DNA of 53,705 bases. Origin: a virus (taxonomy: Duplodnaviria; Heunggongvirae; Uroviricota; Caudoviricetes). Within the stretch, counting starts at the first letter, position 1; each line of letters starts with the position of its first letter. Shown here in pieces: positions 8,049 to 47,196 of the stretch. The notes beneath the pieces were generated by a model. That model had not been told where the DNA came from and ran no database searches. It saw nothing but the letters and a program-made list of their open reading frames with translations. Both the position numbers and the translations under genes were made by a program. The stretch is taken from the IMG/VR virus record IMGVR_UViG_3300037466_000352; one strand, given 5' to 3'.

Positions 8049-9377
8049 ATGTTTAACATCACTGAATCAATCGGCGCGAAGTGGGCACCCGTTCTCGATG
8101 CTGAAGGCGTGGCACCGATCCGTGACGCACACAAGCGTGCGGTCGTGACGAAGCTGCTTGAAAACCAAGAACAAGAAATGATTAAAGAGCGTAAGGCGCT
8201 CTTTGAAGATGCACCGACGAACAACATCGGCGCTGGTTCGGATCAGAACGGTATCGCTAAGTTCGACCCGATCCTCATCTCGCTGGTTCGCCGTGCAATG
8301 CCGCAACTGATTGCGTACGACGTTTGTGGCGTGCAGCCGATGTCCGGTCCTACGGGCCTGATCTTCGCAATGCGTTCGAACTTCGGTACGGATCGCAACA
8401 TGGCAACGCGTACTGAAGCGTTCATCAACGGTGGTAACAGCGCGTTCTCGGGTACGGGTACGGATGCTGGTACGAACCCGGCAGTGCTGAACGACGCAAC
8501 TCCTGGCACGTACACACGTGGCACGGGTCTGGCGACGGCTTCTGCTGAAGCGTTGGGTACGTCTGGCGGCGGTGTGTTCGAAGAAATGAACTTCACCATC
8601 GAAAAGACGACAGTGACGGCTAAGAGCCGCGCACTGAAGGCTGAGTACACCATCGAACTCGCACAAGACTTGAAGGCAGTTCACGGTCTTGACGCAGAAG
8701 GCGAACTGTCGAACATCCTTTCGCACGAAATCATGTTCGAACTTAACCGCGAAGTCATCCGCACGATCTACCAAGTTGCAAAGCCGGGTAGCCTGACGAC
8801 GACGACTCCGGGCACGTTTGACCTTGACGTTGACTCGAATGGCCGTTGGTCAGTCGAACGCTTCAAGGGTCTGGTGTTCCAGATCGAACGCGATGCAAAC
8901 GTGATCGCGCAAGACACCCGTCGCGGTAAGGGTAACTTCATCATCTGCTCGGCAGACGTGGCATCGGCACTGGCTATGGCTGGTATGCTCGATACGGGTC
9001 GCGCTCTGCAAGGTGGTGACGCCCTGCAAGTTGACGACACAGGCAATACCTTCGCGGGTATCCTGAACGGCAAGTACAAGGTCTTCATCGATCCGTACTC
9101 GGCGAACCTCGGCGCGGCAGAACAGTTCTATGTGGTTGGCTACAAGGGCCAATCAGCATACGATGCTGGCCTCTTCTACGCACCGTACGTGCCGCTGCAA
9201 ATGCTGCGTGCTGTCGATCCGCAAAGCTTCCAACCGAAGATTGCGTTCAAGACGCGTTACGGCATGATCGCGAACCCGTTCGTTACGGGCACCGATGGTC
9301 GCACACCGGATGCGGACACCTTCACGGCGAACCGCAACCAGTACTACCGTCGCAGCCGCGTTCTGAACCTGCTGTAA
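8049..9377 (+). CDS. gp23: major capsid protein
   Basis: LVRRAMPQLIAYDVCGVQPMSGPTGLIFAMR, SRALKAEY, GLFYAPYVPL motifs. Confidence 0.98.
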   Translation: MFNITESIGAKWAPVLDAEGVAPIRDAHKRAVVTKLLENQEQEMIKERKALFEDAPTNNIGAGSDQNGIAKFDPILISLVRRAMPQLIAYDVCGVQPMSGPTGLIFAMRSNFGTDRNMATRTEAFINGGNSAFSGTGTDAGTNPAVLNDATPGTYTRGTGLATASAEALGTSGGGVFEEMNFTIEKTTVTAKSRALKAEYTIELAQDLKAVHGLDAEGELSNILSHEIMFELNREVIRTIYQVAKPGSLTTTTPGTFDLDVDSNGRWSVERFKGLVFQIERDANVIAQDTRRGKGNFIICSADVASALAMAGMLDTGRALQGGDALQVDDTGNTFAGILNGKYKVFIDPYSANLGAAEQFYVVGYKGQSAYDAGLFYAPYVPLQMLRAVDPQSFQPKIAFKTRYGMIANPFVTGTDGRTPDADTFTANRNQYYRRSRVLNLL

Positions 9378-9426
9378 TCAGAAACGCAAAGGGGACCGTC
9401 TGGTCCCCAGCGAAAACAAGTAAAAC

Positions 9427-32669: not shown

Positions 32670-33202
32670 TGTCTCGATACCATACCCCGAACTATCAGAT
32701 ACGGAATGCGCTTGCTACGCGTCCTGCACCGAAAGGTGATCTGATCGCAGTCCCCGGACATGAGAAGTATTTGTTCTGTCCCGAGACTGACTGGCTGTAC
32801 AGCACCAAGATGTCGGTGGATTACTATCCGCTGAAGCGCATTGAACCGGAAGAGTGGAATGACCACTTCGACGGTTGGGAAGTTTCTGACAACAACGTGA
32901 AGGTCCGACTACCCGTCACCTTCCTTCGTGAATTGAAAGGTAAGCAAAGCATGTGGAATGAACCGAAGCAAATCAACAACGCAGCGAACCCGACCGGCGT
33001 CGAATTCAAGGGCAAGTTCCTGATCGGCAGTATCGACAAGAAGACCGGTGCGGTCAGCTTCAGCGTGTTCCCGGCACGTCAGCCGTCACTTGAAGCCGCG
33101 AAGAAAGAAGCTGGCCGTCTGGCGATGCTGCACAAAGACAAGCACTTTATGGCCGTGTCCGTGGAAGCAATCGCGACCGTTCAGGAAGTTGTGTTCCTGT
33201 AA
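32669..33202 (+). CDS. hypothetical protein
   Basis: GTG start coupled to the upstream stop. Confidence 0.55.
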   Translation: MSRYHTPNYQIRNALATRPAPKGDLIAVPGHEKYLFCPETDWLYSTKMSVDYYPLKRIEPEEWNDHFDGWEVSDNNVKVRLPVTFLRELKGKQSMWNEPKQINNAANPTGVEFKGKFLIGSIDKKTGAVSFSVFPARQPSLEAAKKEAGRLAMLHKDKHFMAVSVEAIATVQEVVFL

Positions 33203-33227
33203 AAGAACAACAAGAGAAGTAGAGAAG

Positions 33228-33449
33228 ATGACGAAGCAAACAGTGTATTACACGGAAGCACTCGGTCCCATCGTGAAGGGGCAACGCGCGAACGTGGTCG
33301 CATACGAACATTACCGTCTCGGTCGTGTCGGTTTGGGTGGATACCTGCATACGTCGAAGGTCGTGTCGGTAGGCGAAGACGGTACGACCTTCGAGACGCA
33401 GAACTCGATCTACGTGCTGCGCGATGCAGTAGAAAGCGACGCTGCATAA
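33228..33449 (+). CDS. hypothetical protein
   Basis: ATG 33228; LHTSKVV...FETQNSIY pattern. Confidence 0.55.
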   Translation: MTKQTVYYTEALGPIVKGQRANVVAYEHYRLGRVGLGGYLHTSKVVSVGEDGTTFETQNSIYVLRDAVESDAA

Positions 33450-33468
33450 ATCTCGAAGTTTCGGGATG

Positions 33469-33476
33469 TATAAATA
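33469..33476 (+). promoter_or_regulatory. perfect T4 late promoter TATAAATA
   Basis: 20 nt before the first tRNA; identical boxes at 35749 and 38426. Confidence 0.8.
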
Positions 33477-33495
33477 GATCACCGAAACAAACTGT

Positions 33496-33573
33496 GCCCC
33501 TTTAGCTCTTAACTGGCAGAGCAGCGGATTTGTAATCCGATGGTTGGCGGTTCGAATCCGTCAAGGGGCACCA
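33496..33573 (+). tRNA. tRNA-Thr(UGU)
   Basis: GCCCCTT/AAGGGGC acceptor, TTCGAAT T-loop, loop TT-TGT-AA, encoded CCA. Confidence 0.9.
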
Positions 33574-33583
33574 AGAATTCAAA

Positions 33584-33771
33584 CCGGGATTAGCTCAGTG
33601 GTTTTCATGAAAATGTGTCTGATCCACACTTGGTCATGATAGGTCGTTGTGTAAGGAAGTTTGGTGGACGCAGAGTAACGTTCCTGAACATACCAGAAAG
33701 AGATACACGACTTCAGAGCGTCGGTCTGATAAACCGAAGGTCGCAGTGTTCGAATCCTGCATCCCGGACCA
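33584..33771 (+). tRNA. tRNA-Ile(GAU)-like RNA with ~110-nt structured insertion in the D-loop
   Basis: CCGGGAT/ATCCCGG acceptor, GCTC/GAGC D-stem separated by the insert, TCGGT-CTGATAA-ACCGA anticodon arm, TTCGAAT, CCA. Confidence 0.8.
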
Positions 33772-35597: not shown

Positions 35598-35724
35598 GGT
35601 TCTGGTGACTGAGTGGTTTAAGGTCTGGTCCAAGCGGATGTCAACAGGCGTACATCTGCGAAAACCGTTGGGGCGTGACTTAGTTGACACGCTCACGTGA
35701 GTTCGAATCTCACCCGGAACCCCA
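35598..35724 (+). ncRNA. tRNA-Ser-derived tRNA-like RNA with a hairpin in place of the anticodon loop
   Basis: GTTCTGG/CCGGAAC acceptor plus G-1:C73, D-loop GAGTGGTTTA and T-arm GTGAGTTCGAATCTCAC identical to tRNA-Ser, 8-bp inserted hairpin, CCA. Confidence 0.75.
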
Positions 35725-37306: not shown

Positions 37307-37382
37307 AGTCGCGTAGCTCAGTTGGTAGAGCAACCGCTTGATAAGCGGTAGGTCAATGGTTCAATCCCATTCGTGACTACCA
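37307..37382 (+). tRNA. tRNA-Ile(GAU), canonical copy
   Basis: AGTCGCG/CGTGACT, loop TT-GAT-AA, CCA. Confidence 0.92.
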
Positions 37383-39096: not shown

Positions 39097-39180
39097 GGGC
39101 GAGTGGCTTATGGAAATCTGGTACACCTACGTGCCTTAGAAGCACGGCTTTTCTCGGTTCGAATCCGAGCTTGCCTACCA
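39097..39180 (+). tRNA. tRNA-Leu(UAG), atypical
   Basis: Loop CT-TAG-AA, A73, CCA; enlarged D region, short variable region. Confidence 0.8.
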
Positions 39181-43181: not shown

Positions 43182-44246
43182 ATGAGTAACCTTCGCAAGT
43201 TCCCGAGCATCGAACAATTCAGGAATGTCATCACGAATGTTCGACAGTACTGCAAGAAGAACGATCAGCCGCTTCCCACACTGACATTCGTCGGCACAGT
43301 GAAACTTCATGGCACGAACGGCGGTATCGGCCTAAATCTCGCCACGGGCGAACTGTGGGCACAGTCGAAAGAACGCATCATCACTCCCTACGATGATAAC
43401 GCGGCATTCGCCAAGTACGTTCAAGAGAACAAGACCCTATGGGAAGTCTTTCTCCGTTCCGTGGTCGAAGCCGATGTCGTGAAGATGGATGGTGCGACGT
43501 ACGCCGTAGAACGGCTTGAGAATGCCCGCGTGGTCATCTTTGGGGAATGGGCTGGCCCGAGTATCCAGAAAGGCGTGGCGATCAGCCAAATCGAGCGCAA
43601 ATCGTTTTTCCCGTTCGACATCAAGGTGTACATCCCTGATGAAAACGACGAAGACGTGTTGGTCCTGAACTACGATCCGATGTCGTTCCCTGAACTGGCG
43701 ACGATCCCCGATTGCTATCGCATCGGTTCGTTCCAAGTCAAGGTGATCGACATCGACTTCAACGCACCACAAGAGTCGCAAAACGAACTCGTCGAACTGA
43801 CGCTGAAGGTGGAAGAACAGTGCCCGGTCGCGGCTGACTTCAATGTGTTTGGTATCGGCGAAGGCATCGTCTGGACCAACAAAGAAACCGGTCTGCGTTT
43901 CAAGGTGAAGGGCGAGAAACATAGTACGTCCAAGGTCAGCACGGTCAAGGAAATCAGTGCCGAAGACCTCGCACGTATCAGCACGATCAAAACCTTCGTC
44001 GATACGGTCGTGACCGAGAACCGCCTGAACCAAGGTCTGGACAAGCTGCGCGAGATGGGCCTCGAAATATCGGTGAAGAGTACCGGCGACTACATCAAGT
44101 GGGTTGTCGGTGACGTTCTGAAAGAAGAGATGGACCTGATTATCGCGTCGTGTCTGGACAAGAAGGAACTGAACCCGGCGATGTCGAACAAGGCGAAGGA
44201 ATTCTTCTTCGCACACCTGAAGACACAAGAAGCGATTGCAGCGTGA
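43182..44246 (+). CDS. RNA ligase, Rnl2-like
   Basis: Motif I KLHGTN, IFGEW, FDIK, GEGIVW, FKVKG. Confidence 0.82.
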   Translation: MSNLRKFPSIEQFRNVITNVRQYCKKNDQPLPTLTFVGTVKLHGTNGGIGLNLATGELWAQSKERIITPYDDNAAFAKYVQENKTLWEVFLRSVVEADVVKMDGATYAVERLENARVVIFGEWAGPSIQKGVAISQIERKSFFPFDIKVYIPDENDEDVLVLNYDPMSFPELATIPDCYRIGSFQVKVIDIDFNAPQESQNELVELTLKVEEQCPVAADFNVFGIGEGIVWTNKETGLRFKVKGEKHSTSKVSTVKEISAEDLARISTIKTFVDTVVTENRLNQGLDKLREMGLEISVKSTGDYIKWVVGDVLKEEMDLIIASCLDKKELNPAMSNKAKEFFFAHLKTQEAIAA

Positions 44247-45972: not shown

Positions 45973-47196
45973 ATGATTTTCCCTAACATCGAACGTATCG
46001 AAGACGTTCTTCCGCACATCGAAGGAAAGCCCGAGTTTGTTGTTGCTGAACGAGAAGGCTTTACGGTCATCAACTACATGGTTGCGTTCGACACAACGTT
46101 CCCAGACATTCCTGACCTCGAAGCGAAGTTCTTGTACATCGACGAGTTCGACTCGCGTTGTGAAGCATACGAACACGCGATGATGTTGCGTGAATGTCGT
46201 GGCCTGATGTTCGACCGTGAAGGCAAGCTTATCAGCCGCCCGTACGCGAAGTTCTTCAACATCAACGAACGCGAAGAGACGCAGGATCACCGATTCGATC
46301 TGTCTGGTGACGATTGGATTGCACTCGAAAAGCTGGATGGTTCGTTCATCCGCCCGGTGCGTATCGATGGCCTGATTCGTCTCTGTACGAAGATGGGTAT
46401 CACGGAACAATCGCATCAAGCCGAAGACTTCCTCGAAGGTCTTGAAGACGAACAGAAGGACAACTATTTCAAGTTCTTCGAATCATACGTAGATCACTTC
46501 ACTCCCGTGTTCGAATTCTGTTCGCGCAAGAATCAGGTGGTGATCGACTACCCGGAAGATGCGTTGGTGTTGACCGCTATGCGTCATAACCGGACTGGCG
46601 AATACATTCGATACAAGACGCTGCGCCTGATCGCGAGCGTCTTCAAGATTCCTTTGGTGGAACCTCTTGGCGGCAACGAGTTCGGTCCTGATGTCACAGC
46701 AAAGAGCATGGTTGATGTCGTTCGTCAGTGGCTTGGTGTTGAAGGCGTTGTGCTGCGATTCGACGATGGCCGTATGGTTAAGATCAAGGCGCTGGACTAC
46801 TGCGAGAAGCACGGCGCGAAAGATGCCCTGCTGTTGGAAAAGAACCTGTTGCGCTTCTATCTCGCAGGCAAGTTGGATGACTACATTCCGCTTCTGGACG
46901 ATCAGTTCAGGGCACGCGTTGACGAGTATATCGGCGCTGTGACGAAGGGAATCGAGTCGGCAGTGTGGCAAGCAGAATCGACGTTCCGTGGCGTGATGAA
47001 CTGCTACGAGACGCGCAAAGATCGTGCTGTCTACATCAACACAAAGGTCGATCCTCTGTACCGCTCGTTGATATTCTCGATGATGGACGGTAAAGACACG
47101 CGCAAAACGATCATCTCGAAGCTGCTGGCGAATACCGGATCACAAACACAGGTTGACGAGATGCGCCCGTTGATCGGTGGCGCTAAGTGGGCTTAA
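45973..47196 (+). CDS. rnlA: RNA ligase 1 (T4 Rnl1/gp63-like)
   Basis: ECRGLMFD, RPYAKFFNINE, motif I EKLDGS, FEF, EGVV, KIK. Confidence 0.9.
   Translation: MIFPNIERIEDVLPHIEGKPEFVVAEREGFTVINYMVAFDTTFPDIPDLEAKFLYIDEFDSRCEAYEHAMMLRECRGLMFDREGKLISRPYAKFFNINEREETQDHRFDLSGDDWIALEKLDGSFIRPVRIDGLIRLCTKMGITEQSHQAEDFLEGLEDEQKDNYFKFFESYVDHFTPVFEFCSRKNQVVIDYPEDALVLTAMRHNRTGEYIRYKTLRLIASVFKIPLVEPLGGNEFGPDVTAKSMVDVVRQWLGVEGVVLRFDDGRMVKIKALDYCEKHGAKDALLLEKNLLRFYLAGKLDDYIPLLDDQFRARVDEYIGAVTKGIESAVWQAESTFRGVMNCYETRKDRAVYINTKVDPLYRSLIFSMMDGKDTRKTIISKLLANTGSQTQVDEMRPLIGGAKWA

Follow-up and report, generated by a model that had tools for sequence, protein, structure and literature searches.

A conserved tRNA-Ile(GAU)-derived RNA gene with a folded D-loop module in the tRNA array of a T4-like soil phage

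The virus record IMGVR_UViG_3300037466_000352 of IMG/VR, a stretch of 53,705 nucleotides (nt) that is referred to here as the window, carries in its tRNA region a 188-nt element in which a full tRNA-Ile(GAU) frame is interrupted in the D-loop by a folded insert, the module. Comparison with five homologues from metagenomic contigs shows, at the level of sequence and predicted pairing, a conserved and structured RNA gene derived from tRNA-Ile(GAU), with a modular, fast-evolving appendage in its D-loop. The same comparison supports a functional RNA. The parts of the element, its immediate surroundings and its homologues are collected in Table 1.

The tRNA-Ile(GAU) frame and its homologues

A sequence-only reading of this DNA had described the element as a tRNA-Ile(GAU) with a folded D-loop insert, and the coordinates bear this out: by direct reading, the D-loop is broken after G18 G19, and the end of the insert falls at 33714, giving it a length of 113 nt. 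The normal tRNA-Ile(GAU) that the same reading had placed at 37307 was found there by ARAGORN and by the Rfam tRNA model. The T arm has an irregularity that the sequence-only reading had missed. It contains one extra base in its 5' strand (T33747), and in all six members of the family (the window included) the arm is 18 nt long, with a single bulged pyrimidine kept in the 5' strand of a covarying 5-bp stem.

The four stems of the cloverleaf (acceptor, D, anticodon and T) pair in 6/6 members, with covariation. Both sides of the pair have changed at three of the seven positions of the acceptor stem and at all five of the anticodon stem, while the anticodon loop, CUGAUAA, is invariant in the six-member alignment. 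The segment 33593-33601 is invariant as well, except for one C-to-T change that retains a G-U pair, and U8 and A9 of the element are found at 33591-92. Throughout the family U8, A14, G15/C48, G18 G19, A21, the T-loop, the anticodon loop, A73 and CCA are kept. When the frames are compared without their inserts, their closest match is the canonical tRNA-Ile(GAU) of their own clade (71 to 79% identity), and the gene is therefore, judging by this sequence match, a tRNA-Ile paralogue. It shares with the canonical tRNA the anticodon loop, A73 and U12-A23 but differs from it by the 113 to 124 nt in the D-loop and by the bulged T stem.

The determinants of isoleucyl-tRNA synthetase (IleRS) comprise G34 A35 U36, A37, A38, A73, U12-A23, C4-G69, C29-G41 and, in the D-loop, G16, D20 and D21, the last three of which matter for both isoleucylation and editing of Escherichia coli tRNA-Ile (PMC9976931). 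Every member has the anticodon loop, A73 and U12-A23. Of the other two base pairs, C4-G69 is restricted to L003 and C29-G41 to L007 and L008; position 16 is a U. As the module is located at the D-loop determinants (20/21 region), whatever contact IleRS makes with the RNA has probably changed.

ARAGORN made no call at the element in any of the six members as they stand and called tRNA-Ile(gat) in 6/6 once the insert had been removed in silico; in the window, the frame without insert is a 77-nt tRNA-Ile(gat) with a normal 8-nt D-loop. The Rfam tRNA model (RF00005) matched only the 3' part of the element, at 18 bits versus a threshold of 29. The element had been expected to escape standard tRNA finders, and it does. 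It departs from a canonical tRNA, which has a D-loop of about 7 to 11 nt and an unbroken 5-bp T stem, in the 113 to 124 extra nt of the D-loop and in a T stem made discontinuous by the one-base bulge.

The search for relatives was carried out via neighboring proteins, because DNA searches of GenBank phages, IMG/VR and GTDB gave none. Among GenBank phages, blastn matched only the tRNA parts of the element. Exact and degenerate pattern scans of IMG/VR returned no relative (a looser scan gave two chance matches), and neither did a pattern scan of GTDB genomes. Single-protein locus searches in IMG/VR gave nothing, and a YqeY profile retrieved 41 distant phages, with no family member among them. 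The 9.8-kb sequence G001, a relative of the window's genome, does not extend to this region, and several other contigs ended before the element. Syntenic metagenomic contigs were reached via a YqeY-like gene located 580 bp downstream and the small open reading frame (ORF) right after the element, and a pattern scan of JGI metagenomes yielded one true member (L010), the ten other hits being chance matches or ordinary tRNA-Ile genes. With a covariance model built for the family, the homologues score 166 to 194 bits (E about 1e-44 to 1e-52) and ordinary tRNAs at most 66 bits. A weak match of this model at 9712-9856 of L008 was dropped, as it overlaps coding sequence.

Covariation was evaluated on an alignment of the six sequences in which the tRNA stems and the module helices H1 and P4 (see below) were marked, with slid partners and 500 shuffles as controls. 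Paired cells amounted to 93.8%, versus 33 to 46% in the slid controls. Both sides had changed in 19 of the 33 pairs, and none of the 500 shuffles reached the observed values. The module alignment (MAFFT, covariance model) is imperfect, with H1 of the window offset by one column, so these counts understate H1 pairing. G-U pairs are present, e.g., G1-U72 in three members, indicating that the plus strand is the RNA strand. Between L010 and L021, six of the eight differences are, by eye, transitions between Watson-Crick and wobble pairs in predicted helices.

These results bear on the possibility that the element is a tRNA-Ile pseudogene, functionless as an RNA, that was disrupted when a sequence entered it by chance or as a selfish element. 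Its rejection by standard tRNA finders would agree with such a relic, as would a locus that is a hot spot of mobile DNA, with the element absent from L002 and L020 and an HNH endonuclease gene here in the latter (see below). However, compensatory changes affect each of the four tRNA stems as well as the module helices, all bases of the tertiary interactions are retained, and the loops are invariant across phages whose neighboring YqeY protein is only 52 to 66% identical; nor are the homologues recent copies of one sequence. A search for conserved, covarying homologues had been suggested alongside the sequence-only reading, and it produced five, all syntenic. Since they exist, and since no Rfam family matches the insert, we reject a decaying pseudogene with a chance insert as highly improbable.

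Fold of the D-loop module

The insert measures 118 to 124 nt in the relatives, with differences that are not multiples of three, and folds into two domains. The first had been predicted as TCATGA/TCATGA enclosing GTGT/ACAC, and both helices, here P1 (33605-10 with 33634-39) and H1 (33615-18 with 33626-29, loop CTGATCC at 33619-33625), appear in the minimum-energy fold. They are paired in 6/6 members despite differing sequences. P1 in the relatives is UCC/GGA, UCCC/GGGA, UUUC/GAGA or UUUCA/UGAGA, and H1 has 4 to 7 bp across the family, with a conserved loop CYGAUCM that is 8 nt long in L007 (CCGAUCCA). A purine-rich internal loop lies between P1 and H1; a kink-turn or loop-E assignment for it was discarded because of a mismatch, by eye, with either consensus.

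In the second domain, the predicted outer stem was recovered (AGGTCGT(T)GTGT at 33641-52 with ATACACGACTT at 33703-13) and is found in the window phage only. The inner pairing proposed together with it, AGGAAGTT/AACGTTCCT, turned out to be a competing alternative to P2, which the relatives favor. Similarly, TGGT and ACCA are predicted to pair as a part of the P2 helix rather than in the pseudoknot that had been considered. The helix equivalent to P2 in the relatives differs in sequence and has 5-6/5-6 pairs. P4 has a bulged A and a closing G-C pair, and its stem covaries (CUGA/UCAG versus CCGA/UCGG versus CAG/CUG); AGTAACGTTC is invariant in 6/6 members and is found once per locus, within the element only. 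An extra helix between P2 and P4, P3 (GGGGAC/GUUCCY), is restricted to L003, L007 and L008, and L010 and L021 have a different middle fold with a P4 of just 2 bp. P1, H1, P2, P3 and P4 each pair in the members that carry them, with differing sequences. A protein-coding reading of the overlapping ORFs was rejected, since the length differences among inserts are not multiples of three and the stem substitutions are compensatory.

Two properties of the loops were noticed post hoc. Both invariant module loops have self-complementary cores (GAUC and AACGUU), which could, as far as their sequence goes, allow self-association of the RNA by kissing loops. In addition, GAU occupies positions 3 to 5 of the H1 loop in 6/6 members, as it does in the real anticodon loop, and two tRNA-Ile anticodon-like heads could conceivably be shown to a dimeric tRNA-Ile-specific enzyme or nuclease. 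Intramolecular pairing between the anticodon and the H1 loop (GAU with AUC), although conceivable from the sequence, was discarded: the P1-H1 arm of ~14 bp seems too short to span from the elbow to the anticodon, and there is no covariation.

Table 1. Features of the element, its surroundings in the window and its homologues (positions are those of the window unless a contig is named).
Feature	Position	Strand	Remarks
Whole element: tRNA-Ile(GAU)-like RNA gene with D-loop module, CCA encoded	33584-33771	+	188 nt
Acceptor stem, 5' strand	33584-33590	+	7/7 pairs with 33761-33767
D stem GCTC and start of D-loop AGTGG (G18 G19)	33593-33596 and 33597-33601	+	GCTC pairs with GAGC 33716-33719
Module (insert)	33602-33714	+	113 nt, placed between G19 and A21
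Domain 1	33605-33639	+	P1 enclosing H1; minimum-energy fold
Domain 2	33641-33713	+	11-bp outer stem enclosing P2 and P4; minimum-energy fold
P2 TTTGGTG/TACCAGA, enclosing P4	33660-33697	+	33660-66 with 33691-97; 7/7 pairs
P4 hairpin CAG(A)G/CCTG	33671-33686	+	Invariant 7-nt loop TAACGTT 33676-33682
A21, D stem 3' strand GAGC, position 26	33715-33720	+	A-GAGC-R invariant; abuts anticodon stem
Anticodon arm	33721-33737	+	Loop CTGATAA, GAT at 33728-33730
Variable loop AGGTC	33738-33742	+	
T arm	33743-33760	+	Standard T-loop TTCGAAT; one-base bulge T33747 in 5' strand
Acceptor stem 3' strand, discriminator A, CCA	33761-33771	+	A and encoded CCA at 33768-33771
T4-type late-promoter-like motif TATAAATA	33469-33476	+	20 nt upstream of tRNA-Thr
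tRNA-Thr(UGU)	33496-33573	+	ARAGORN; Rfam tRNA 57.7 bits; 10 nt upstream of element
Canonical tRNA-Ile(GAU) of the same phage, comparison copy	37307-37382	+	ARAGORN; Rfam tRNA 71.4 bits
Homologue	L003:8946-9138		
Homologue	L007:9242-9440		
Homologue	L008:8998-9193		
Homologue	L010:218-411		
Homologue	L021:2734-2927		

Genomic context and possible cassette exchange

The window phage is a divergent T4-like myovirus from soil, whose DNA polymerase shares only ~43% identity with its closest counterparts among GenBank phages. It has a clamp loader, RNA ligases and an array of 13 tRNA genes. All five homologues sit 5 to 10 nt 3' of a tRNA-Thr(UGU), with a conserved GTATAAATAGATCACC ahead, and a normal tRNA-Ile(GAU) is found further on in every contig of sufficient length. 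The order Thr then Ile-like is common to L003, L007, L008, L010 and L021, and the window phage shares the gene order Thr then Ile with T4. The motif TATAAATA occurs three times in the 53.7-kb window (33469, 35749 and 38426), always on the plus strand and in the tRNA region, against an expectation of 0.26 copies. From its likeness to T4-type late promoters we infer promoter activity, and tRNA-Thr is probably co-transcribed with the element. In every relative, a block of ~22 nt around the first copy, ahead of tRNA-Thr, is conserved, which exceeds the needs of a promoter alone.

The element ends 12 nt before the ATG of the next ORF (33784), within a putative late transcription unit, a position that would suit a cis-acting processing or stability element: a tRNA-like entry site for RNase P or RNase E that shapes the mRNA of the small downstream ORF, with no role in trans. 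The principle of tRNA-like punctuation of transcripts is established in organelles. However, an ordinary tRNA, for instance the neighboring tRNA-Thr, would already supply a processing site, and in L002 the same downstream ORF comes right after tRNA-Thr, with no element in between. Nor would such a role account for the anticodon loop and the pair of module loops being invariant or for the selection on five module helices, and we regard this explanation as very unlikely.

Two contigs are devoid of the whole gene. In L002, the small ORF directly follows tRNA-Thr, and in L020 a reverse-strand HNH endonuclease gene (8910-9404, minus strand) is found in its place. No insert-free allele of the tRNA with the bulged T stem was seen in the sampled contigs. 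The tRNA-Thr(UGU) of these two contigs (L002:3499-3581 and L020:8842-8924) is a different allele, 83 nt long and with a long variable region, and the locus looks like a hot spot for cassette exchange.

The window and L021 are 94 to 100% identical over 33450-33600 and from 33750 onward but only 44 to 58% identical over 33600-33740, a stretch that covers the module and the anticodon stem. It follows that the central part of the gene was exchanged or has evolved much more rapidly than the sequence around it, while the two module loops and the anticodon loop were retained. The same pair of sequences also differs by a 79-nt indel at about 33200-33250, in the gene upstream of tRNA-Thr, where the surroundings are 78 to 86% identical. 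The hyper-divergent module cassette and the accessory distribution of the gene would agree with a part in the conflict between phage and host.

A second conserved, non-canonical tRNA-like gene is located just after tRNA-Ser(UGA) (35598-35724 in the window, L021:4768-4890 and L007:11001-11096), so that these phages have at least two odd tRNA-derived RNAs. Its L021 copy scores 30 bits with the Rfam tRNA-Sec model (threshold 47), and at the matching place in L007 ARAGORN calls a 96-nt "tRNA-Val(aac)." A further ARAGORN call in the window, a "tRNA-???" at 39097-39180, has an anticodon of two bases (ct) and is just over the threshold of the Rfam tRNA model at 33.7 bits.

Candidate roles and comparison with known RNAs

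We tentatively read the element as a stable, unspliced, tRNA-derived noncoding RNA of ~190 nt that would serve as an adaptor or decoy away from the ribosome, a reading to which we give slightly less than an even chance, the adaptor or decoy part being the weaker one. Transcription from a late T4-type promoter would produce a joint transcript with tRNA-Thr, and the tRNA frame would allow host tRNA-processing enzymes (RNase P, 3' trimming) to release the RNA and keep it stable. The module would be retained in the mature RNA, projecting from the elbow, and together with the bulged T stem it would exclude the RNA from ordinary decoding. Acting in trans, the tRNA-Ile face (anticodon loop, A73) might engage a tRNA-Ile-specific factor (IleRS, a modification enzyme or a tRNA-targeting nuclease), and the invariant loops CYGAUCM and UAACGUU might bind a second partner or each other.

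The element could instead be an intron-containing tRNA-Ile(GAU), in which a 113-nt intervening sequence would be cut out of the D-loop (by the module itself, a host RNase or a phage enzyme) and the halves rejoined into a 77-nt tRNA, either by a kinase and an Rnl1/Rnl2-like ligase or by host RtcB. In favor of excision, the frame left by removal of the insert has a normal 8-nt D-loop and is called tRNA-Ile(gat) in 6/6 members, conservation is complete for the anticodon loop, A73 and CCA, and the conserved module loops could form a catalytic or recognition core. Lak megaphages are also reported to have interrupted tRNA genes, whose splicing mode is unknown (PMC6784885). The phage RNA ligases (43182-44246 and 45973-47196) invoked by the sequence-only reading are indeed present 10 to 14 kb downstream, one of Rnl2 type and one of Rnl1 type, along with a P-loop kinase; RNA ligases are common in T4-like phages, however, and are thus not specific evidence for an intron.

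Several observations speak against excision. No Rfam family matches the module (E up to 10 in the window, L003 and L007, and up to 5 in L010/L021). In particular, at E up to 10 in four members there was no match to the group I or group II intron models or, with these permissive thresholds, to known small self-cleaving ribozymes (hammerhead, twister, pistol, hatchet, hepatitis delta virus-like); a ribozyme of a new class would escape this screen. The insert had already been judged too short for a group I or II intron and free of a bulge-helix-bulge, and we concur: 113 to 124 nt is too short, and neither junction (33601/33602, 33714/33715) allows the motif of two 3-nt bulges around a 4-bp helix to be drawn. 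By eye, the sequences at the junctions also vary among members. A spliced product would still have the bulged T stem and would duplicate the canonical tRNA-Ile(GAU) of each genome, and where the element is absent (L002, L020) it is the whole gene that is missing, with no intron-less allele seen. We therefore consider an intron unlikely. Lower still is the probability we assign to the more specific proposal that in this bacterial virus the module is a tRNA intervening sequence of a new class, excised through its own folding or by a nuclease dedicated to it, with the halves rejoined by the phage RNA repair enzymes (kinase and Rnl1/Rnl2-like ligase).

Retention of the module and an off-ribosome role are the better reading because of the T-stem bulge, the redundant canonical gene, the presence or absence of the gene as a whole and the lack of a splicing signature. 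EF-Tu reads the T stem, so the conserved bulge would argue against ordinary use in elongation. Thus, between the expanded tRNA chimera and the excised intron that had both been put forward, a functional RNA is supported in either case and we lean, on indirect evidence, toward a permanent chimera.

Some points weigh against an unspliced RNA acting in trans. The family is small, comprising about three or four lineages, and the inner fold of the module varies by subgroup (P3 in one, a 2-bp P4 in another). The 5' strand of the D stem may pair locally with a conserved GAG just downstream in 5/6 members, and the folding energy of the whole molecule is ordinary (z = -0.87). Contacts between loops are beyond the reach of covariation, because the two module loops and the anticodon loop never vary. 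Lastly, decoy or adaptor activity is conjecture in its entirety.

The closest parallels in T4 are RNAC (species 1 RNA) and RNAD (species 2 RNA), small stable RNAs that originate in the tRNA cluster late in infection and whose roles are unknown (PMC3014915, PMC9697503). The element, too, is located among the tRNA genes of a T4-type phage. Upstream of it is TATAAATA. The fold of T4 rnaC (L001:2909-3047, minus strand) is unusually stable (-50.2 kcal/mol, z = -4.6; RNAD, z = -0.8) and comprises a closing stem like that of an acceptor, a long hairpin in the D region, a further hairpin of 10 bp that is "anticodon-like" and a T arm of canonical form (CCGGG-UUCGAAU-CCCGG). RNAC and the element have the general design of a tRNA-derived RNA with an expanded D region. 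Unlike the element, with its full tRNA-Ile(GAU) frame, RNAC lacks a D stem, a 7-nt anticodon loop and a recognizable amino acid identity. Homology to rnaC or rnaD was rejected, as the family model gave no match at E up to 10 and in Smith-Waterman comparisons (z, -0.5 to 2.2) only the T-loop aligned; the likeness is therefore one of design and not of shown descent. An unrelated phage contig (L049:225-350, IMGVR_UViG_3300050158_000039) contains a 126-nt tRNA-like RNA that appears as a tRNA derivative in the style of T4 RNAC. Its acceptor stem, T arm and CCA are good, but its D region includes 64 nt of non-tRNA sequence and its anticodon arm is poor.

Transfer-messenger RNA (tmRNA), with tRNA-Ala-like ends, a tag reading frame and pseudoknots, and YrlA, a Y-RNA-like RNA of bacteria, combine a tRNA-like acceptor/T-arm with a non-tRNA domain and are processed by tRNA enzymes. 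The element likewise joins a tRNA-like part to a non-tRNA domain, but there the non-tRNA part replaces the anticodon arm, which in the element is intact. Neither ARAGORN nor Rfam found a tmRNA at the element, and no Y-RNA-like family of Rfam matched.

Among interrupted tRNA genes, group I introns of bacteria and phages are also structured RNAs within a tRNA gene, although they occupy the anticodon loop, have at least ~200 nt and possess a P1-P9 core. The noncanonical, bulge-helix-bulge introns of archaeal tRNAs resemble the module in interrupting the gene at a site other than the anticodon, which may be the D-loop. The module, in contrast, has no bulge-helix-bulge, is much longer and structured, with conserved loops, and belongs to a phage of a bacterial host; no splicing endonuclease was noticed in the window phage. 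The "enigmatic" tRNA introns of Lak megaphages, detected with the eukaryote mode of tRNAscan, have intron-plus and intron-minus alleles of the same gene (PMC6784885). They too interrupt phage tRNA genes with a conserved sequence outside the known intron classes, but are predicted in the anticodon loop and come from unrelated gut megaphages, while the module is in the D-loop and has no insert-free allele among those sampled. In the full-text literature, we found no description of a phage tRNA with a structured D-loop module.

The tRNA clusters of phages have long been known for stable non-tRNA species, of which T4 RNAC and RNAD have remained without a function decades after their first description. 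The family described here is a cleaner case, with the tRNA-Ile body preserved and a folded module at the sole outward-facing site of the D-loop, and genes of this kind are systematically overlooked by tRNA finders. The combination of fixed loops with a cassette that is swapped or diverges rapidly between near-identical phages provides a testable handle on tRNA-derived phage RNAs. If the module is retained, the RNA would be a natural "tRNA scaffold" and possibly a decoy or adaptor against a tRNA-Ile-specific host factor, with a bearing on tRNA-targeting defenses. If it is excised, it would represent a new splicing route in bacterial viruses and, should phage enzymes rejoin the halves, protein-assisted tRNA splicing outside archaea and eukaryotes.

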